Program-made: the position numbers and the translations under genes
In this document: positions 9,015 through 23,991 of the stretch, piece by piece
Layout of the letters: each line of letters opens with the position of its first letter
How positions within the stretch are numbered: the stretch's first letter is position 1
The notes under the pieces: generated by a model
Told to the model about the DNA's origin: nothing
Database searches by the model: none
The model's input: the letters and a program-made list of their open reading frames with translations, nothing else
Virus record (IMG/VR): IMGVR_UViG_2529292735_000017
Length of the DNA stretch: 46,878 bases
Source: a virus
Lineage: Duplodnaviria > Heunggongvirae > Uroviricota > Caudoviricetes
Strand: one strand, 5' to 3'

Positions 9015-10364
9015 TTATTCCGTTTTACATATCATAGTAGTCGATTGGAGAATATAGTTTCTGGGAATGTACTCTTCAAAGTGTTCGTCCTTTTTAAATA
9101 CATGAACTACATTTGGGAATAATTGATAGTCAACAGGGTGTATAGCGTTTGGATTATGGTACATGTACATGGCTGTACACCATGGTTCTTGATAGTTAGG
9201 GTCACTTACATCGGCTGAAAATGGATGTGGGGCTGCATCCTGATCAGTTTTAACACCACTGACGTACACTTTGAATCCACTCGCCTCTACACCTGCAAGA
9301 ATTCCCATCCGGTTAAACTTAGGTATGGTTGCTTGAGTAGTGAGTAAAACGGCAGAAACATAATTATTTTGTTCTGAGCCAAAAAAGTTCGACTTGATAC
9401 TTCTATTTTCATCTGTATGTCTTTCAATAGAAATGCCTGACTCAATATCAATCCCGTACAAATAGCTATGCAAGGCTTCGCTTGAGAAGGCCATGGACAT
9501 TCTTTTTGAATAATCCTGCATTGCTATGACAAATGGTTTGTTCTTTGTATGGTTGAGTTCCCAGTAATGAACTTTCTCTGGCTCAGGGCAATGCCGGACT
9601 TTTTTTAATAAACTTCTTGCAAACTTAAAAGGCATGACATTTAGAACATGTTTTCTTAATTCATCCATCTGTTCATCGTTAATGACTTTTCTTTCAAGAG
9701 GGGCTTCTGCTTCAGCAATGCTTACAGCCTCTACAGCAATTTCCACTCCAAATTTAGATAGCAGAAAATCTGGTTGATTGTATTCTCTATTCATTTCAAA
9801 GTCGAGTTCATAAAATACAGCGTTCAAATATAATTCAAATAACCTTGAATTAAATGCATCACTTTGAAAATCCCTTATAAATATTCCATCAGGATCTTTG
9901 AACCAGTATGCAAGTTCCTCAAGAACAATATATGCAGGGAAATGAAGAGGGTCTTCGAGGAGCATTTTTATATAAACATTCCTTTTTTTCTCTGGGACTT
10001 TACTCAAGAATAATGAAAAAGGTTTGGATGATTCATCGCCTTGCATGAATGTACCATTTTGGTGCTGCGCCAGCATCTTTGGTATGTCATCGTTCAAATT
10101 ATTAAGCAAGACATCCATTGAATCAAATGAAGCCAAGACGTTTATTGCTCTGAATTTTTTATCTAAATCCCGACCTAAGACTATTGCGTTAAAATCTTTA
10201 TCAATATTGCATATGATTATTGTGGATAACAATGTTATCCCATTCCCCTCATATTTAAACCAGCGTATCTCCTCAGAAAATGTCTTAAGGTAAGGTGAGC
10301 GACCGTAAAAATAAATATCAAATTGTTCTTTGCTGATCTCACTGAAGTGTAATCCTGCGTTCAT
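9015..10364 (-). CDS. Uncharacterised 449-aa protein (orphan moron; candidate defence/accessory gene)
   Basis: Long uninterrupted ORF on the strand opposite all flanking phage genes; visibly AT-rich; no Walker A, HExxH or other motif I can assign. Confidence 0.8.
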   Translation of the reverse strand: MNAGLHFSEISKEQFDIYFYGRSPYLKTFSEEIRWFKYEGNGITLLSTIIICNIDKDFNAIVLGRDLDKKFRAINVLASFDSMDVLLNNLNDDIPKMLAQHQNGTFMQGDESSKPFSLFLSKVPEKKRNVYIKMLLEDPLHFPAYIVLEELAYWFKDPDGIFIRDFQSDAFNSRLFELYLNAVFYELDFEMNREYNQPDFLLSKFGVEIAVEAVSIAEAEAPLERKVINDEQMDELRKHVLNVMPFKFARSLLKKVRHCPEPEKVHYWELNHTKNKPFVIAMQDYSKRMSMAFSSEALHSYLYGIDIESGISIERHTDENRSIKSNFFGSEQNNYVSAVLLTTQATIPKFNRMGILAGVEASGFKVYVSGVKTDQDAAPHPFSADVSDPNYQEPWCTAMYMYHNPNAIHPVDYQLFPNVVHVFKKDEHFEEYIPRNYILQSTTMICKTE

Positions 10365-13510: not shown

Positions 13511-14332
13511 ATGAAACTGGAAGATTTACCGAAATACTACTCCCCAAAATCCCCTGGCCTGACCGATGCATCGGCCTCAACGTCAAAAGATGCGCTGAGT
13601 ATCACTGATGTGATGGCCGCGCAGGGCATGACACAGAATCGGGCTGAGATGGTTTTTTCTGCGTTCCTGGGGAAAATGGGCATCAGTATGAATGACAGGG
13701 CGCGGGCAACAGAATTACTGGCAGATTATGCACTCAGTCGGTGCGATCGTGTGGCGGCGTTGAGAAAACTTCCGGCAGAAATAAAACCGGTAGTGATGCG
13801 CATTATGGCTTCGTACGCTTTTGAGGATTATGCCCGCAGCGCAGCGAGTAAAAAGCAGTGCCCTTGTTGCTATGGGGAAAAATTTATTGAAAGCATAGTT
13901 TTTACAAACAAGGTCCAGTATCCGGATGGTAAGCCGCCGGTATGGGCAAAGTGTACGAAAGGTGTGTATCCGTCTTACTGGGAAGAATGGAAAAAAGTCA
14001 GGGAGGTGGTAAAAGTTGCCTGTCCGGAGTGTGGCGGAAAGGGTGAGGTTTCCACCGCCTGTAAGGATTGCCGTGGGCGTGGTGTCGCCATTCATCGTGA
14101 AGAGTCGGTAAAACGTGGTATGCCTGTTGTCAGAGACTGCCAGCGTTGTGGTGGTCGTGGCTATGAAAGACTACCATCAACGGAGGCATTTAATGCTATA
14201 TGCGAGGTGACAAACCAGATAACACGCGCGTCATGGGAAAAAACAGTTAAGAAATTCTATGATGCGCTGGTGACCCGGTTTGATATTGAAGAAGCATGGG
14301 CTGAGCGGCAGTTAAAAAAGGTAACTAGGTAA
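13511..14332 (+). CDS. Late-gene antitermination protein Q
   Basis: 273 aa with CxxC…CxxC zinc-binding clusters; immediately upstream of a pR'-like promoter and terminator. Confidence 0.8.
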   Translation: MKLEDLPKYYSPKSPGLTDASASTSKDALSITDVMAAQGMTQNRAEMVFSAFLGKMGISMNDRARATELLADYALSRCDRVAALRKLPAEIKPVVMRIMASYAFEDYARSAASKKQCPCCYGEKFIESIVFTNKVQYPDGKPPVWAKCTKGVYPSYWEEWKKVREVVKVACPECGGKGEVSTACKDCRGRGVAIHREESVKRGMPVVRDCQRCGGRGYERLPSTEAFNAICEVTNQITRASWEKTVKKFYDALVTRFDIEEAWAERQLKKVTR

Positions 14333-14337
14333 CAAGG

Positions 14338-14365
14338 TTGATTTTTCCGGAATCTGTGGTAAATT
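14338..14365 (+). promoter_or_regulatory. Putative late promoter pR'
   Basis: TTGATT (-35, 14338-14343), 16-nt spacer, TGgTAAATT extended -10 (14357-14365), directly after the Q stop. Confidence 0.5.
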
Positions 14366-14414
14366 CGTCATAATGATGGGCTTTTTATGCCTGACGTTAG
14401 AAGAGTTTCTACAA

Positions 14415-14436
14415 CCCGCCGCCGAGCGGGTTTTTT
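14415..14436 (+). terminator. Putative tR' intrinsic terminator
   Basis: CCCGC-cgccga-GCGGG hairpin followed by TTTTTT, about 50 nt downstream of the promoter. Confidence 0.5.
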
Positions 14437-14476
14437 ATTGCGGAATTAATTACGGACCGTTATTATTCTGCTCCCG

Positions 14477-14552
14477 GCCCTTTAGCTCAGTGGTGAGAGC
14501 GAGCGACTCATAATCGCCAGGTCGCTGGTTCAAATCCAGCAAGGGCCACCAT
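14477..14552 (+). tRNA. tRNA, anticodon CAT (ileX/ileZ-like tRNA-Ile2; Met not excluded by anticodon alone)
   Basis: 76 nt with 7-bp acceptor stem GGCCCTT/AAGGGCC, anticodon loop cTCATAa, GGTTCAAATCC T-arm, 3' CCA; closely resembles remembered E. coli ileX. Confidence 0.85.
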
Positions 14553-14651
14553 CACAAACCGCCATTAGCTTATCAGGAAGAGCAGACGACACGATAACAG
14601 GGTTGTTGGTGCGGGGGCGGGTCCCCGATGGCGGTCCATTATCGGTATTCA

Positions 14652-14728
14652 GCGTTGTTAGCTCAGCCGGACAGAGCAATTGCCTTCTAAGCAATCGGTC
14701 ACTGGTTCGAATCCAGTACAGCGCGCCA
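14652..14728 (+). tRNA. tRNA-Arg (anticodon TCT)
   Basis: 77 nt; acceptor stem GCGTTGT/ACAGCGC, anticodon loop CTTCTAA, GGTTCGAATCC T-arm, 3' CCA. Confidence 0.85.
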
Positions 14729-14865: not shown

Positions 14866-15192
14866 ATGGTTTTTTCAGCATTAAATATTTATCATTCATA
14901 TGGTGTGGGTAGAGTGAATATTGATGAGGCGTCGGGGTGTTTCATCCTTAGGCAGCGCATTGATATAGTCAATGCAGCACGAGCAAAGGCCTTCAGCCGT
15001 TTGACAGTTTTGTTCTGTGCTCCTGATCGTCTTTCGGGAAGAGACGTTATTATTCTGAATAGTGATGCTATACAGAGGGTTTGCGATGAGTTCATGGTTG
15101 CTAATTCAGAATTATTTGCTCTTGTTCAGGAGTACAACAGAATAGCCAGGACCTGTGGTATGGATGAACTTCGGATTACTCATCTGGGGTAG
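14866..15192 (+). CDS. Hypothetical protein (late-region cargo)
   Basis: ORF with first ATG at 14866 and no convincing RBS; between the tRNAs and the lipoprotein genes. Confidence 0.35.
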   Translation: MVFSALNIYHSYGVGRVNIDEASGCFILRQRIDIVNAARAKAFSRLTVLFCAPDRLSGRDVIILNSDAIQRVCDEFMVANSELFALVQEYNRIARTCGMDELRITHLG

Positions 15193-15725
15193 ATACATAT
15201 CTGGATTATCACCTGTTACGGTAAAAAGTGATTGCTTACTGTTTTTGTGAATGGCATTGCAGCAGCCGGATAATGTCAGTGCTGGCTGACGGTGTGCTGG
15301 TGGCGGGTGTGGTGGTTGTTGCTTTCCCGTTGCTGAAAAAGAAAACGCCAGACTGTTAGCCGGGTATCAGTTAGCGGGAGAAATTTTTAAATACTTCACA
15401 ATTCAGGCGGTTGACTGTTCTCTGGTTTGCGGGGAGTTTGTTAAAAGAAACTGGCATGGTGAATCCCCCTGTGCGGAGGGGCAATCAGCGAGTAGGTATA
15501 TGGGATAATCGCGGATTCAGGTGCTGGTACTGAATTCACCGGGAGGCACCCGGCACCATGCACTTCAATAGATTCTCTCCACATTATGGATATTCTTTCA
15601 GAATATCCCACGCAGACTTTGTGTAAATGTTAACAAATGTGCGTTTTATTTGATCTGATTCGCTGTTTGAGCGTCCAAAACAACGGTATATATAATCCTT
15701 TACTATATGACATATGTGAGGAAAA

Positions 15726-16154
15726 ATGGGTTTTCGTAGCGCATCAATTCTTACGTTGATTATTAGTGGGATTATTATCGGGTGCACTGATGCTGTATCG
15801 ACAAATTATCATGACCGTACATCATATTACTCCGATAAAGCAATAGAGACACAGTATGTGAGTTCATCTGAACGTACTTCTGATGTTAGTGAGGATATCC
15901 GTCTGTATGCCCATCAAATCAAGAGCGCCATCGAAAAACAGTTCGGGGATGCGAGTAAGTATTCAGGAAAAGAGTGTACACTGAGAATGCATATGGCCCC
16001 GAATGGCCTTCTACTGGAGGTTAAAAGAGAAAGTGGAGACCTCGATTTATGTCGTGAAGCGATGAATGCGATAAAGAATGCTGATATACCTGCCCCCCCT
16101 TCGCCGGAAGTATATAAAGTATTTCAAAATGGGGTGCTGGATTTTAAACCCTGA
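15726..16154 (+). CDS. Lipoprotein with TolA C-terminal (domain III)-like domain
   Basis: Signal peptide with lipobox IIGC; C-terminal …YAHQIKSAIEKQFGDASKYSGKECTLRMHMAPNGLLLEVKRESGDLDLCREAMNAIKNADIPAPPSPEVYKVFQNGVLDFKP closely parallels the remembered E. coli TolA C-terminus. Confidence 0.8.
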   Translation: MGFRSASILTLIISGIIIGCTDAVSTNYHDRTSYYSDKAIETQYVSSSERTSDVSEDIRLYAHQIKSAIEKQFGDASKYSGKECTLRMHMAPNGLLLEVKRESGDLDLCREAMNAIKNADIPAPPSPEVYKVFQNGVLDFKP

Positions 16155-16304
16155 TATTTATTGTTTTGTAATAAACGGTTTCGGCTTAGGTTTGTTCTGA
16201 CACAACTACGGCACTGAGCTAAATTTAGCGGATAGTCAGCTCTGAGCCAGTGGCGGACGTAACAACTACTATTGCTGAGATTTTAATGGATTGAGGAGCA
16301 AGAA

Positions 16305-16700
16305 GTGGGATTAAAGAAAATCGTTATGTTGACTTTTTGGGTCGGTTTTGTTGCGGGATGCACACCTTTACACCCTTCAGATTGCCACAAAACTACTGCT
16401 ACAGGTAGTTGCAGTTCAGGACGCTGGGATGATCAGGATGAATGGGGGGCGCAAGCGCGGGGAATCAGAGCTGCAATTAATGCCAAACTTGATGAGCCGC
16501 ATAACTGGAAAGGGAAAAAATGCAGGTTGCATATGGAATTCTCTCAGGATGGCACGGCGTTAAAAATATCTACCAGTAACGGTGATAAAGCCTATTGCGA
16601 AGCGATAAAGTCCGCAGCTCATAAAGCCAAATTTCCGGCCTTCAACAATCCGGAAGTCTACAGAGATTTTCAGAAATCTGGCTTTGACATGCGAGGTTAG
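16305..16700 (+). CDS. Paralogous lipoprotein with TolA C-terminal-like domain
   Basis: GTG start with GAGGAG RBS; lipobox VAGC; shares the C…C…PEVY…FQ…G(F/L)D(F/M) pattern with the upstream paralogue. Confidence 0.75.
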   Translation: MGLKKIVMLTFWVGFVAGCTPLHPSDCHKTTATGSCSSGRWDDQDEWGAQARGIRAAINAKLDEPHNWKGKKCRLHMEFSQDGTALKISTSNGDKAYCEAIKSAAHKAKFPAFNNPEVYRDFQKSGFDMRG

Positions 16701-17007
16701 CTCTTCAATTACTATATCTCATTCATAGCAAACTGACAGATTTGATGATGTTCTATATACGAAACCTGTGATGTCAAGTCTGAGCTAATACAAATAAACA
16801 TAATATCAGAGAAATACATTTTATTAGCTCGCTACGGCGAGCTTTTTATATTGCATCGTCTCCAGCATATATATCAATTAAGGCTCTGATTGATGTGTCT
16901 GGAAGCCTACACATAATAGACTGGCCCCCTGAATCTCCAGACAACCAATATCACTTAAATAAGTGATAGTCTTAATACTAGTTTTTAGACTAGTCATTGG
17001 AGAGCAG

Positions 17008-17337
17008 ATGATTGATGTCTTAGGACCGGAGAAACGCAGACGGCGTACTACACAGGAAAAGATCGCTATTGTTCAGCAGAGTTTTGAACCGGGAATGACG
17101 GTCTCCCTTGTTGCCCGGCAACACGGTGTGGCAGCCAGCCAGTTATTTCTCTGGCGCAAGCAATACCAGGAGGGAAGTCTTACTGCTGTGGCCGCAGGAG
17201 AGCAGGTCGTTCCTGCCTCTGAACTTGCTGCTGCCATGAAGCAGATTAAGAACTCCAGCGCCTGCTCGGCAAAAAAACGATGGAAAATGAACTCCTTAAA
17301 GAAGCCGTTGAATACGGGCGTGCAAAAAAGTGGATAG
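17008..17337 (+). CDS. insC: IS2 transposase OrfA (InsC), C-terminus apparently frame-altered
   Basis: [41 protein letters not shown]… matches InsC up to …AAMKQIK, then diverges from my recollection, consistent with a 1-nt deletion. Confidence 0.7.
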
Positions 17338-18235
17338 CGCACGCGCCCTTATTGCCCGGGGATGGGGAGTAAGCTTAGTCAGCCGTTGTCTCCGGGTGTC
17401 GCGTGCGCAGTTGCACGTAATTCTCAGACGAACCGATGACTGGAAAGATGGTCGCCGCAGCCGTCACTCAGATGATACGGATGTGCTTCTCCGTATACAC
17501 CATGTTATCGGAGAGCTGCCCACGTATGGTTATCGTCGGGTATGGGCGCTGCTTCGCAGACAGGCCGAACTTGATGGTATGCCTGCGATCAATGCCAAAC
17601 GTGTTTACCGGATCATGCGCCAGAATGCGCTGTTGCTTGAGCGAAAAACCGCTGTACCGCCATCGAAACGGGCACATACTGGCAAAGTGGCCGTGAAAGA
17701 AAGCAATCAACGATGGTGCTCTGACGGGTTCGAGTTCCGCTGTGATAACGGAGAAAAACTGCGAGTCACGTTCGCGCTGGACTGCTGTGACCGTGAGGCA
17801 CTGCACTGGGCAGTCACTACGGGCGGCTTCGACAGTGAAACAGTACAGGACGTAATGCTGGGAGCGGTGGAACGCCGCTTCGGCAACGAGCTTCCGGCGT
17901 CTCCAGTAGAGTGGCTGACGGATAATGGTTCATGCTACCGGGCTAATGAAACACGGCAGTTTGCCCGGATGTTGGGGCTTGAACCGAAGAACACGGCGGT
18001 GCGGAGTCCGGAGAGTAACGGCATAGCAGAGAGCTTCGTGAAAACGATAAAGCGTGACTACATCAGTATCATGCCTAAACCAGACGGGTTAACGGCAGCA
18101 AAGAACCTTGCAGAGGCGTTCGAGCATTATAACGAATGGCATCCGCATAGTGCACTGGGTTATCGCTCGCCACGGGAATATCTGCGGCAGCAGGCCAGTA
18201 ATGGGTTAAGTGATAACAGGTGTCTGGAAATATAG
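17330..18235 (+). CDS. insD: IS2 transposase OrfB (InsD; DDE catalytic domain)
   Basis: 301-aa [26 protein letters not shown]… typical IS3-family OrfB. Confidence 0.85.
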
Positions 18236-18286
18236 GGGCAAATCCACATAATAACTATGCCATCCGTTCCGTGCGGAGGTGAGGCT

Positions 18287-18502
18287 ATGAAATCCATGGA
18301 CAAAATTTCAACAGGCATTGCCTACGGCACCTCCGCAGGCAGTGCTGGCTACTGGTTTTTACAGCTGCTCGATAAAGTCACGCCCTCACAGTGGGCAGCA
18401 ATAGGTGTGCTGGGTAGCCTGGTATTTGGCCTGCTGACGTACCTGACAAATCTTTATTTCAAGATTAAAGAAGACAGGCGTAAGGCTGCGAGAGGAGAGT
18501 AA
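18287..18502 (+). CDS. S: Class II holin (phage 21 S-like pinholin) with dual start
   Basis: [71 protein letters not shown]; Met1-Lys-Ser-Met4 dual-start motif; two transmembrane segments. Confidence 0.85.
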
Positions 18503-18570
18503 TCCAATGACTCAATACTATGAACTGGTTGTGAAAGGAGGTAAGCGTCAACGGAGCACCGTATTGACGC

Positions 18571-18930
18571 TTATTTATTGGTGAGTACTACGTTCCATGG
18601 CAGGAGTTCGTCAACACGGTTGGAGGGCCATTCCGGCAGTACGCTCAGAATATGGCGCAGATACGCTTCCGGATCGATACCGTTCAGTCGGCAGGTGCCG
18701 ATCAGCCCGTACAGCAGTGCTCCACGCTCGCCGCCGTGATCGCTACCGAAGAACACGTAATTTTTCTTTCCGAGACAGACTGCACGAAGCGCTCTTTCCG
18801 CTGTGTTATTGTCCACCTCCGCCAGACCGTCATCACTGTAATAACAGAGGGCGTCCCACTGATTCAGTACATAGCTGAACGCTTCGCCCAGTCTGGATTT
18901 TTTCGACAGCGTGCCATTCTTCTCCACCAT
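18571..18930 (-). pseudogene. IS66 TnpC C-terminal fragment
   Basis: …DNNTAERALRAVCLGKKNYVFFGSDHGGERGALLYGLIGTCRLNGIDPEAYLRHIL… conserved IS66 transposase C-terminus; N-terminal three quarters absent. Confidence 0.75.
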
Positions 18931-18947
18931 CCATTCATGCAGCGACG

Positions 18948-19193
18948 TCAGTAACGCTTTGCTTCGCTGCTGCCTGGCTGCAAGACGCTCTGACTCTGGT
19001 AATCTCCGTATTTCATTCTCGATGGCGTACAGTTCACTTCTCCCCGTCGGCCACGGAAGATAAACAGGTGACCGGAGAAGGGGTTATCATCCAGCACATG
19101 CTGTATCTGCTCCCCCAGACCGTTGAAGGATTTACGCATATCAGTAACGCCGGCAACGAGCCAGATACGGGTACCTGATGGGAGTGAAATCAT
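18948..19193 (-). pseudogene. IS66 orf2 (TnpB) truncated
   Basis: MISLPSGTRIWLVAGVTDMRKSFNGLGEQIQHVLDDNPFSGHLFIFRGRRG then unrelated sequence, marking the deletion junction. Confidence 0.7.
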
Positions 19194-19627
19194 CGTCCCC
19201 TCCCGGTCAGCTCACGGATCAACACCGTGAGCAGCTCTGGTGAAGGATTTTCCAGCATCATTTTACCGTAATGGAATTCCACATGGCAGGAAGCTGCACA
19301 AGCAACTGATAATGCCTCCGGAGCAGGAGCATCTGTAGCACAGCGCGGGGGGTCGATAAGTTCCACTGGAACCAGAGTCGGAGAGGCCGGAAAAGATTGT
19401 GATACTGTAGGGCCTACAATAGTTGGAGGCATTCTACGAGAAATACGTCCTTCTCTTTGCCAGAGGCGTAGCCATTTAAAAATCAGGTTGTTATCAACGC
19501 CATGTTCCCGGGCCAGTTGTGCAACATTGGCATTTGGTTTCGAAGCCAGTTCAACCATATGAAGTTTAAATTCATTAGAAAATATCCGGCGGGTTCCGGA
19601 GCGCCAGTCTGTAGGTTTATCCATCAA
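19190..19627 (-). CDS. IS66-family orf1 (TnpA accessory protein)
   Basis: 145-aa ORF with HTH-like N-terminus, first gene of the IS66 operon. Confidence 0.75.
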   Translation of the reverse strand: MMDKPTDWRSGTRRIFSNEFKLHMVELASKPNANVAQLAREHGVDNNLIFKWLRLWQREGRISRRMPPTIVGPTVSQSFPASPTLVPVELIDPPRCATDAPAPEALSVACAASCHVEFHYGKMMLENPSPELLTVLIRELTGRGR

Positions 19628-19991
19628 TAGAACTCCGTCTAATTTAGAAGGAGCTCTAATTTAGTCTGCAAGGAGCAGGTGTTACAGACGGCATTGGCTT
19701 TACGCTTACGAAAGGAGTCCGTAATTTTGAGAATAAAGTTACGGTAACTGTAGCCTTACAGGACAAAGAACGCTTTGACGGTGAAATTTTTGGCCTGGAT
19801 GTCGCCATGGACCGTGTTGAAGGAGCTGCGCTGGAGTTTTATGAGGCAGCAGCCAGAATGAGCGTCCGGCAAGTCTTCCTGGAAGTAGCAGAAAAATTGT
19901 CAGAAAAAGTTGAGTCTTATCTGCAGCATCAGTACTCCTTTAAGATTGAAAATCCTGCCAATAAGCACGAGCGTCCTCATCATAAATATCT

Positions 19992-21019
<1,028 letters not shown>

Positions 21020-23496: not shown

Positions 23497-23991
23497 ATGG
23501 ATCGAGAGTTAAAAAATCTGACGCTGAATATCAGTCAATTGGCGGCACTGTCAGGTGTACATCGCCAGACTGCTGCGGCAAGGCTGCAAAATCTACCCGT
23601 TGCAGGGGGGCATGAAAGCAACCTCAAGCTTTATCGGGTGGTTGATATTGTGTCGGCATTTCTGGCATTACCACCGCCGGTTGCAGAAGGCGAAATGGAC
23701 GCACATGAGCGCAAAGCCTGGTATCAGTCTGAACGTGAGCGTCTTAAGTTCGAACAGGAAACGGCACAACTCATTCCGGCCAGTGATGTCAGACGGGAGT
23801 TTGCCATCTGGGCAAAAGCGGTCGTGCAGGTGCTGGAGACATTACCGGATATTCTTGAACGTGACTGCGGTCTGCAGCCTGCCGCTGTGAGCCGTGTTCA
23901 GTCCATTATTGATGATCTGCGCGATCAGGTAGCCCTGCGGGTGACTGAAGCAGGTGCGGATGATGAGGAGGAATTACAGCAGGAGGAGTAA
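23497..23991 (+). CDS. Terminase small subunit (Nu1-like)
   Basis: 164 aa with N-terminal winged-HTH-like segment (…LNISQLAALSGVHRQTAAARLQ…) and acidic C-terminus; directly upstream of large terminase. Confidence 0.75.
   Translation: MDRELKNLTLNISQLAALSGVHRQTAAARLQNLPVAGGHESNLKLYRVVDIVSAFLALPPPVAEGEMDAHERKAWYQSERERLKFEQETAQLIPASDVRREFAIWAKAVVQVLETLPDILERDCGLQPAAVSRVQSIIDDLRDQVALRVTEAGADDEEELQQEE

Follow-up and report, generated by a model that had tools for sequence, protein, structure and literature searches.

Is the DNA that follows the Q antiterminator gene in IMG/VR virus record IMGVR_UViG_2529292735_000017 the late control region of a Shiga toxin (Stx) phage from which the toxin is missing, or does it combine parts of more than one kind of phage? 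The record, a 46,878 nucleotide (nt) stretch of caudoviral DNA that we refer to as the window, carries a promoter, a terminator, tRNA genes and an accessory slot between its Q gene and its lysis genes. The original prediction, made from the sequence alone, read this arrangement as the late architecture of Stx2-type phages without the toxin. The layout and the tRNA module bear that reading out, but the Q module does not, as the Q protein of classic Stx2 phages belongs to a different family. We put the probability at approximately 85 % that the locus joins the late-gene control cassette of a Qin-like, lambdoid Escherichia coli prophage to the ileZ-(argN)-argO tRNA module of Stx phages. Our evidence consists of sequence elements, homology, patterns of conservation, tRNA identities and codon counts, and all transcriptional behaviour described below is inferred, that of the PR′ switch from phage lambda.

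The Q gene, the PR′ promoter and the tR′ terminator

The Q gene (13511–14332, plus strand, as are all the promoter, terminator and tRNA elements described here) encodes a protein of 273 aa with an intact reading frame. Pfam family PF03589 (Antitermination protein Q) was matched at 175 bits (E 3e-52, cut-off 26.7), and the chains of the solved lambda Q structures 7UBM and 4MO1 were matched at E 4e-39. Identity with lambda Q is 31 %, with an insertion of approximately 66 residues that falls between lambda positions ~121 and 146. The enlarged zinc-ribbon arm (residues ~116–215) contains three DnaJ-like CxxCxGxG motifs, and Pfam reported a sub-threshold DnaJ_CXXCXGXG match in the protein. YdfT, the Q protein of the K-12 prophage Qin, is 40 % identical to that of the window and likewise has DnaJ-like zinc motifs, whilst QuuQ of the Stx2a phage EH1910 is 91 % identical at the amino acid level. 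By its sequence matches we assign Q, together with the Q proteins of Qin and EH1910, to the lambda/Qin family and not to the Q21 family of the classic Stx2 phages. In lambda, the zinc-ribbon arm of Q contacts positions 11–13 of the Q-binding element (QBE) and sigma region 4 (PMC9388147).

A Q cassette is defined by Q together with the PR′ promoter, a pause element, a terminator and the late genes (PMC9388147). The promoter with an extended −10 element that had been predicted directly after Q is present. Its −35 hexamer TTGATT (14338–14343) starts 6 nt past the Q stop codon and aligns with the TTGACT of lambda PR′; the 16 nt spacer (14344–14359) includes the extended −10 TG at 14357–14358, as part of TGg at 14357–14359; and the −10 hexamer TAAATT (14360–14365) is the same as that of lambda PR′. 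Written out, lambda has TTGACT-N17-TAAATT-TGACTC-AACGAT-GGG and the window has TTGATT-N16-TAAATT-CGTCAT-AATGAT-GGG. From the −10 hexamer onwards, TAAATT-N6-AATGATGGG in the window aligns without gaps to TAAATT-N6-AACGATGGG in lambda, which brings AATGAT-GGG into register with the lambda pause element. A single copy of the composite motif TAAATT-N6-AAYGATGGG is present in the window, where shuffled sequence would be expected to yield 0.01, and the same arrangement of promoter and pause element lies 3′ of the related Q genes of K-12 Qin and phage EH1910. A promoter directly downstream of Q can thus be assigned as PR′ at the level of sequence.

The lambda hexamer AACGAT occupies +1 to +6 and acts as a −10-like element that is re-bound by sigma70, leading to a pause at +16, and the GGG that follows is a discriminator-like enhancer of this pause (PMC4005639). 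Alignment with lambda predicts a transcription start (+1) at 14372 in the window, a sigma70-dependent pause element spanning 14372–14380 (AATGAT at +1 to +6, GGG at +7 to +9) and a pause at +16/+17, corresponding to 14387–14388.

Conservation around PR′ was examined in 80 related IMG/VR loci in which Q is 94–100 % identical to that of the window. In the block from 14335 to 14365, which includes both hexamers, the minor-allele frequency is at most 4 % in every column, and the spacer TTTCCGGAATCTGTGG is essentially invariant. The same spacer carries one change in EH1910 (Q 91 % identical), and is unrelated in K-12 Qin (40 %) and lambda (31 %). The lambda QBE sits within PR′, upstream of the pause element (PMC9388147), and by comparison with lambda the candidate position of the QBE in the window is this spacer. 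A sequence that is constant with the same Q and different with a different Q shows the pattern to be expected of a Q-specific binding site.

The pause element itself shows a distinctive pattern of natural variation. A search of IMG/VR with exact 50 nt flanks, in which the hexamer was left free, returned 111 copies: AACGAT in 62, AATGAT (the form in the window) in 21, AATAAT in 11, AACTAT and AACAAT in 8 each, and AAAGAT in 1. Hexamer positions 1, 2, 5 and 6 and the GGG were fixed in all 111 copies, and variation was confined to positions 3 and 4. The A at position 2 and the T at position 6 are the −10 bases read most strongly by sigma region 2. This pattern indicates purifying selection on the functional positions, and the collection amounts to a natural-variation data set for a sigma-dependent pause element, in which the four strongly read positions are fixed and the two weakly read positions are free.

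Homoplasy was assessed by counting parsimony steps for 930 columns on a tree built from the Q gene by neighbour joining; variable columns had a median of 1 step and a 95th percentile of 4. The two highest values of all 930 columns fell within the initial transcribed region of PR′, at 14374 (+3; 14 steps) and 14382 (+11; 11 steps), and position 14375 (+4) followed with 8 steps, in third place and tied with the junction column 14440. Columns 14374, 14375 and 14382 are multi-allelic. One tentative explanation, which we hold to be possible rather than probable, is that hot spots of mutation or selection in the initial transcribed region of PR′ mark out the sigma-dependent paused complex. Pause strength may have been repeatedly re-tuned in nature; alternatively, the long-lived paused bubble of a constitutive promoter may leave its exposed non-template bases unusually prone to mutation, such as C to T at +3. 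A lesser possibility of the same kind is that the short RNA made between PR′ and tR′ acts in trans, by analogy with StxS in Stx phages.

The strong hairpin terminator that had been predicted downstream of the promoter was also recovered, by a terminator scan, folding and energy calculation. The intrinsic terminator tR′ (14413–14436) consists of the hairpin AACCCGC-CGCCGA-GCGGGTT at 14413–14432, with a 7 bp stem (five of the pairs G-C) and a 6 nt loop, and a T6 run at 14431–14436. The hairpin has a folding energy of −11.2 kcal/mol and corresponds to +42 to +61 of the PR′ transcript, so that an RNA terminated at tR′ is predicted to be approximately 62–65 nt long. In relatives, the stem is kept through A-T to G-C (second pair) and G-C to G-T changes, and variation is concentrated in the loop (14421 and 14423). 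Two other candidate features that overlap tR′ were rejected. An Rfam Trp_leader match at 14333–14439 scored 25.6 bits, below the gathering score of 41, and was discarded as a terminator-shaped similarity; and the frame of an open reading frame (ORF) at 14373–14513, which runs through tR′ into ileZ, is not kept in lambda (ATG GGT TAA).

These elements are consistent with a model where RNA polymerase would start constitutively at PR′, near 14372, and sigma70 would then re-bind AATGAT-GGG at +1 to +9, causing the complex to pause near +16/+17. If Q were absent, the polymerase would stop at the hairpin and T-run at 14413–14436 and free the short RNA. Q made from the early operon would bind between the −35 and −10 hexamers and load onto the paused polymerase, rendering it terminator-resistant, and the modified polymerase would pass through tR′, the tRNA genes and the accessory genes to transcribe those for lysis and morphogenesis.

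The tRNA module and its candidate promoter

Both of the tRNA genes that had been proposed, with anticodons CAT and TCT, were detected by ARAGORN (14476–14551 and 14652–14728), with Rfam tRNA scores of 72.5 and 68 bits, respectively (gathering score 29), and NCBI PGAP annotates tRNA-Ile and tRNA-Arg at a 99.9 % identical locus. Both are full length and have an encoded CCA. The CAT tRNA is identical at 76/76 positions to ileZ of two Stx2 phages and is 89.5 % identical to K-12 ileX, compared with 69 % for the elongator metT and 63 % for the initiator metZ. It carries the pairs C4:G69 and C5:G68, where metT instead has U4:A69 and A5:U68; these two C:G pairs are the major identity pairs of E. coli TilS (PMC11947777). 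Because of its identity with ileZ and ileX, the TilS identity pairs and the PGAP call, we identify the CAT tRNA as a tRNA-Ile2 that reads AUA and not as a tRNA-Met, with lysidine at position 34 and charging with isoleucine as predictions. The ‘Met’ label given by ARAGORN reflects the unmodified anticodon. The TCT tRNA, an argO-type tRNA-Arg reading AGA and AGG, matches Stx2-phage argO at 76/77 positions (98.7 %), the single change converting U4-A69 to U4-G69; its identity with K-12 argU is 74 %, and the two have the same anticodon loop, CUUCUAA.

What the count of two tRNAs missed is a third tRNA-derived unit between them. The ileZ, argN (tcg) and argO (tct) genes of Stx phages are spaced 7–13 nt apart, whereas 100 nt separate the two tRNA genes of the window. 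Alignment with intact argN of two Stx2 phages revealed a decayed argN (tRNA-Arg UCG) homologue at 14559–14638. The remnant keeps both halves of the acceptor stem (CCGCCAT...ATGGCGG-T-CCA), a CCA-like end and part of the D-arm, but the anticodon arm has been swapped for unrelated sequence and the T-loop has been destroyed (TTCGAGT to GCGGGT). A run of G within it (G5 in the window, at 14613–14617) is between 4 and 14 residues long in related loci. We rejected the idea that the 100 nt stretch is a functional third tRNA: ARAGORN made no call, the isolated stretch had no Rfam tRNA match at E≤10, its fold was no better than that of shuffled sequences (z-score −0.99) and the predicted ‘anticodon’ hairpin had a 3 nt loop. 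The allele with the argN remnant is found in approximately 1850 of 5426 complete E. coli genomes, where only the flanking tRNA-Ile and tRNA-Arg are annotated. The cassette is therefore best described, by alignment, as the Stx-phage ileZ-argN-argO module with a pseudogene in the middle. Two corrections to annotation follow: the CAT tRNA is tRNA-Ile2 rather than tRNA-Met, and the two tRNA genes flank an argN pseudogene that is widespread but lacks annotation.

The content of the module varies among loci that share the same Q. Of the 80 related loci, 56 have the cat and tct tRNAs and 11 have an intact cat, tcg and tct set, with other sets (for example, cat-ttt-tgt-tcc) or none in the remainder; because of this variation, we regard the tRNA block as an exchangeable cassette placed directly after tR′. 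As tRNA genes are common integration sites, and a 2026 preprint interprets tRNA matches near prophage small RNAs (sRNAs) in that way, the tRNA genes might instead be att scars left by integration and not functional phage cargo. Yet their position in the prophage is central, between Q and the holin gene and far from the integrase gene at 2–1297; they are full length with CCA; they are the same as in free Stx phage genomes; and they occupy the same internal position in 70 of the 80 related loci. The position and the identity with free-phage copies led us to discard the att-scar reading, to which we give almost no weight.

A second promoter may serve the exchangeable tRNA cassette. Similarity to Stx phages starts at approximately 14436, right past the T-run of tR′; the leader shared with these phages is 40 nt long, and 2 nt separate the T-run from the tRNA block. 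This leader contains the candidate promoter TTGCGG-17-TATTAT (14438–14443 and 14461–14466), from which transcription would start at approximately 14472–14474, 2–4 nt ahead of ileZ. Across 15 leader variants, including those of Stx2 phages, the TTG, the TATTAT and the 17 nt spacing are invariant, and the spacer and discriminator vary.

The alternative is that the tRNA genes lack a promoter of their own and depend entirely on polymerase that gets past tR′, either with the help of Q or by leakage. In keeping with this, ileZ begins just 39 nt past the T-run of tR′, on the same strand, and a generic sigma70 scan of the interval between tR′ and ileZ found no promoter scoring at least 9/12. Constancy of TTG-17-TATTAT in 15 variants whose surrounding bases vary is difficult to reconcile with that view, as is the position of the conserved block, which starts exactly at the module junction. 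Prophage Sp5 of O157 strain Sakai provides a further argument. Under a coordinate offset for Sakai that we take to be 142 nt, the published Sp5 PR′ start falls 22 nt past the Q stop codon and the published 3′ end of tR′ falls on the T-run of a second hairpin, at position 1003 of our Sp5 locus (L090). In the 163 nt Sp5 gap, which was located via this assumed offset, TTGCGG-17-TATTAT is the only plausible promoter, and no better candidate was seen there. The Sp5 report describes a primary start site, apparently driving the tRNAs, that was mapped between tR′ and stx2AB (PMC7547250), and our candidate promoter agrees with this approximately located site.

On balance, the conserved leader suggests that the tRNA genes have their own promoter and are probably not strictly Q-dependent, and we regard expression by read-through or leakage alone as the clearly less likely course, though a serious one. 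In the lysogen, the weak sigma70 promoter TTGCGG-17-TATTAT would make tRNA-Ile2 (CAU) and tRNA-Arg (UCU), and induction would boost them; ileZ and argO would then be present in lysogens and only increased by Q. A terminator scan of the window found no terminator-like site after argO before 15028, and transcription from the tRNA promoter may therefore continue into the accessory genes.

Codon supply, accessory genes and the integrity of the cassette

The original prediction held that the tRNAs supply rare-codon decoding for the accessory, or cargo, genes. In part this stands: AUA, AGA and AGG together account for 35.6 per 1000 codons in the cargo genes (11/309, counting the DUF3927 gene and the two TolA-C genes), approximately threefold the 11.3 per 1000 of the structural genes (6966 codons; p = 0.0014, Fisher's exact test). 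The part that fails is specificity. The enrichment is not cargo-specific, because the lysis genes (41.2 per 1000), Q (36.6) and the early genes (25.5) are similarly rich, and the comparison of cargo with early genes (p = 0.27) does not support an enrichment particular to the cargo. The ORF at 14866–15192 contains 9 AUA, AGA or AGG codons in 108. The highest frequency in the window, 57.9 per 1000, was found in an AT-rich early-region gene on the minus strand (9015–10364), which encodes a protein of 449 aa; this gene has 36 % G+C, no Pfam match and, as its only assignment, phrog_8571, a family with no assigned function. For binomial tests, the K-12 codon baseline was one that we assumed.

These counts fit a general need of the non-structural genes of the phage, and not a need specific to the cargo. 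One of the two tRNAs would decode AUA, once host TilS had introduced lysidine, and the other AGA/AGG, codons that are two- to fourfold commoner in early, Q, lysis and accessory genes than in structural genes. Colicin D cleaves tRNA-Arg, and a different role for the tRNAs would be to buffer the cell or the phage against tRNA-cleaving toxins, such as anticodon nucleases or agents of colicin D-type tRNA-Arg cleavage. The adjoining cargo lends this some appeal, since it is colicin- or envelope-related, with a TciB-like member of a ‘resistance to colicin’ family and two proteins with TolA C-terminal domains. The anticodon loop of the Arg tRNA is the CUUCUAA of host argU, though, and so would not be cleavage-resistant, and the two anticodons match the three rarest sense codons of E. 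coli, which are enriched in the non-structural genes. We consider protection against such toxins improbable as the main role, and favour codon supply for the non-structural genes.

The accessory slot (14866–16700, plus strand) takes the position held by stx2AB in Stx phages. As had been foreseen, no toxin gene is present: stxA and stxB are absent from the ORFs of the slot, and PGAP annotates no toxin gene at the identical locus. The slot begins with an unannotated ORF at 14866–15192, a full-length match to phrog_2873, followed by a DUF3927/TciB-like peptide (15228–15359; DUF3927 in Pfam, and a PHROG family whose description is cell-division inhibition or colicin resistance), and by two paralogous proteins with TolA C-terminal domains identified with Pfam (15726–16154 and 16305–16700), all on the plus strand. 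The first TolA-C gene is a pseudogene in the PGAP annotation. The TolA-C proteins and the TciB-like peptide may act at the envelope as decoys for colicins or filamentous phages. The slot also contains the sRNA STnc100 (RF02076; 15425–15615, plus strand), which separates the DUF3927 gene from the first TolA-C gene and was matched at 114 bits against a gathering score of 47; a 2026 preprint ties STnc100 to PasD sRNAs near Q genes.

Downstream of the slot, the late genes are all on the plus strand. The first is the holin gene (18287–18502; PF04971), followed by the lysozyme gene at 19992 and the structural ORFs at 23497–46171. Two insertions, both missing from otherwise 99.9 % identical prophages, including our IS-free locus L001, interrupt this region. 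An IS2-like insertion sequence (IS) with transposase domains (16923–18244), in the same orientation as late transcription, parts the cargo from the holin gene and lies approximately 30 nt upstream of the holin start. A truncated IS66-family remnant with an 8 bp duplication (18541–19709) lies inside a DUF1327 (ydfR-like) gene.

Several points weigh against our interpretation of the locus as a working Qin-like cassette joined to an Stx-phage tRNA module. The two IS elements lie as interruptions between PR′ and the lysis genes, and the switch may no longer give a productive late programme. The arm of Q is approximately 66 aa larger than that of lambda, so the geometry of Q loading may differ, and the spacer is a candidate position only for the Q-binding site, the limits of which are not definable from sequence. 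Neither promoter was listed by the generic sigma70 scan, because PR′ scores 8/12, below the threshold of 9, and the candidate tRNA promoter also scores 8/12; our call of PR′ rests on homology and conservation instead. The rare-codon enrichment involves small counts, 11 of 309 codons in the cargo, and extends beyond the cargo. Finally, transcription at the locus is deduced by analogy.

Taken to its limit, the argument from the insertions would make the cassette an inactive relic of a defective prophage, which resembles a late switch without being one. The two IS insertions in the late operon of the window would fit such decay, and the related Qin prophage of K-12 is cryptic. Against this, phage mEp460_ev081 and IS-free prophages share the segment from Q to the tRNA genes at 99.9 % identity, the reading frame of Q is intact and the variation of the pause hexamer indicates purifying selection. 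The insertions need not block late transcription, as Q-modified polymerase reads through terminators over many kilobases (PMC9388147). We judge the relic explanation unlikely, and retain that of a Qin-like control cassette joined to an Stx-phage tRNA module.

Comparison with known phages and prophages

The type of cassette is textbook knowledge, Stx phages have long been known to carry the tRNA module and the exact DNA is annotated in hundreds of genomes. The gene names ileZ, argN and argO are present in Stx-phage sequence records, and the original descriptions of the module are reportedly those of Schmidt et al. in 1997 and Plunkett et al. in 1999; our literature search for ileZ/argN/argO and rare codons in Stx phages, within a limited collection of papers, found nothing. 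Only two points are mildly new: the argN pseudogene, which lacks annotation and has a G-run of variable length, and the pattern of hot spots at +3, +4 and +11 of PR′.

The lambda cassette of Q, PR′, pause element and tR′ is alike in having a PF03589 Q protein, the TAAATT hexamer, the 6 nt interval to a −10-like hexamer with GGG (AACGATGGG in lambda, AATGATGGG in the window) and an intrinsic terminator ahead of the late genes. It differs in the sequence and size of Q (31 % identity, with approximately 66 extra residues in the window) and in the spacer at the QBE position, which is unrelated. The window has a canonical TGn extended −10 element and a terminator at +42 to +65, whereas the lambda hairpin and T-run are located approximately 190 nt downstream, and lambda has no tRNA genes.

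A closer relative is the Qin prophage of K-12, which shares the gene neighbourhood (hokD, rem, ydfU/DUF968, Q, essQ-ydfR-rrrQ-rzpQ and cspI, with rusA ahead of Q, and essD, in the window), the Q family with its zinc motifs, the pause element AACGATGGG and a homologous terminator, AACCCGC...GCGGGTT. The Qin Q protein is 40 % identical to that of the window and its spacer is different; Qin has no tRNA module, and cspF/cspB occupy the cargo slot.

The phage mEp460_ev081 (LR597641) and 358 complete E. coli genomes are 99.9 % identical to the window over 3.4 kb, from rusA to the second TolA-C gene. They are without the IS2-like and IS66-family insertions, and the tRNA genes are unannotated in the phage record.

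Among toxin-carrying phages, Stx2_EH1910 (LC567834, Stx2a) has an allele of the same Q (91 % aa identity) and a nearly identical PR′, pause element and tR′. Approximately 1.6 kb, containing a hypothetical gene and a DNA methylase gene, separates tR′ from the tRNA genes in EH1910, argN is intact and stx2AB comes next.

The Stx2 phages of the Sp5/933W type have the same order of parts, Q-PR′-tR′-ileZ argN argO-slot, with ileZ 100 % and argO 98.7 % identical to the genes of the window, and share the 40 nt leader with TTG-17-TATTAT. According to the Sp5 report, a short transcript between PR′ and tR′, StxS, is known in these phages, and PR′ and tR′ are 258 nt apart (PMC7547250). They differ from the window in having a Q of the unrelated Q21 family (PF06530), an intact argN, the stx2AB genes and, between argO and stx2A, a terminator-like hairpin with a T-run. 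We also observed, in Sp5 of O157 Sakai (L090 769–790), a hairpin with a T7 run, GAACCCGCCGATGCGCGGGTTTTTTT, approximately 24 nt past the published PR′ start; it resembles tR′ of the window and precedes the mapped tR′, which is at +258.

As judged from these comparisons, what the window shares with the classic Stx2 phages is the architecture and the tRNA module only, and not the Q/PR′ module. The slot of the Shiga toxin genes is filled by other accessory genes in commensal or extraintestinal pathogenic E. coli (ExPEC)-type prophages under the same control logic, which is relevant to the movement of toxin genes between phage backbones.

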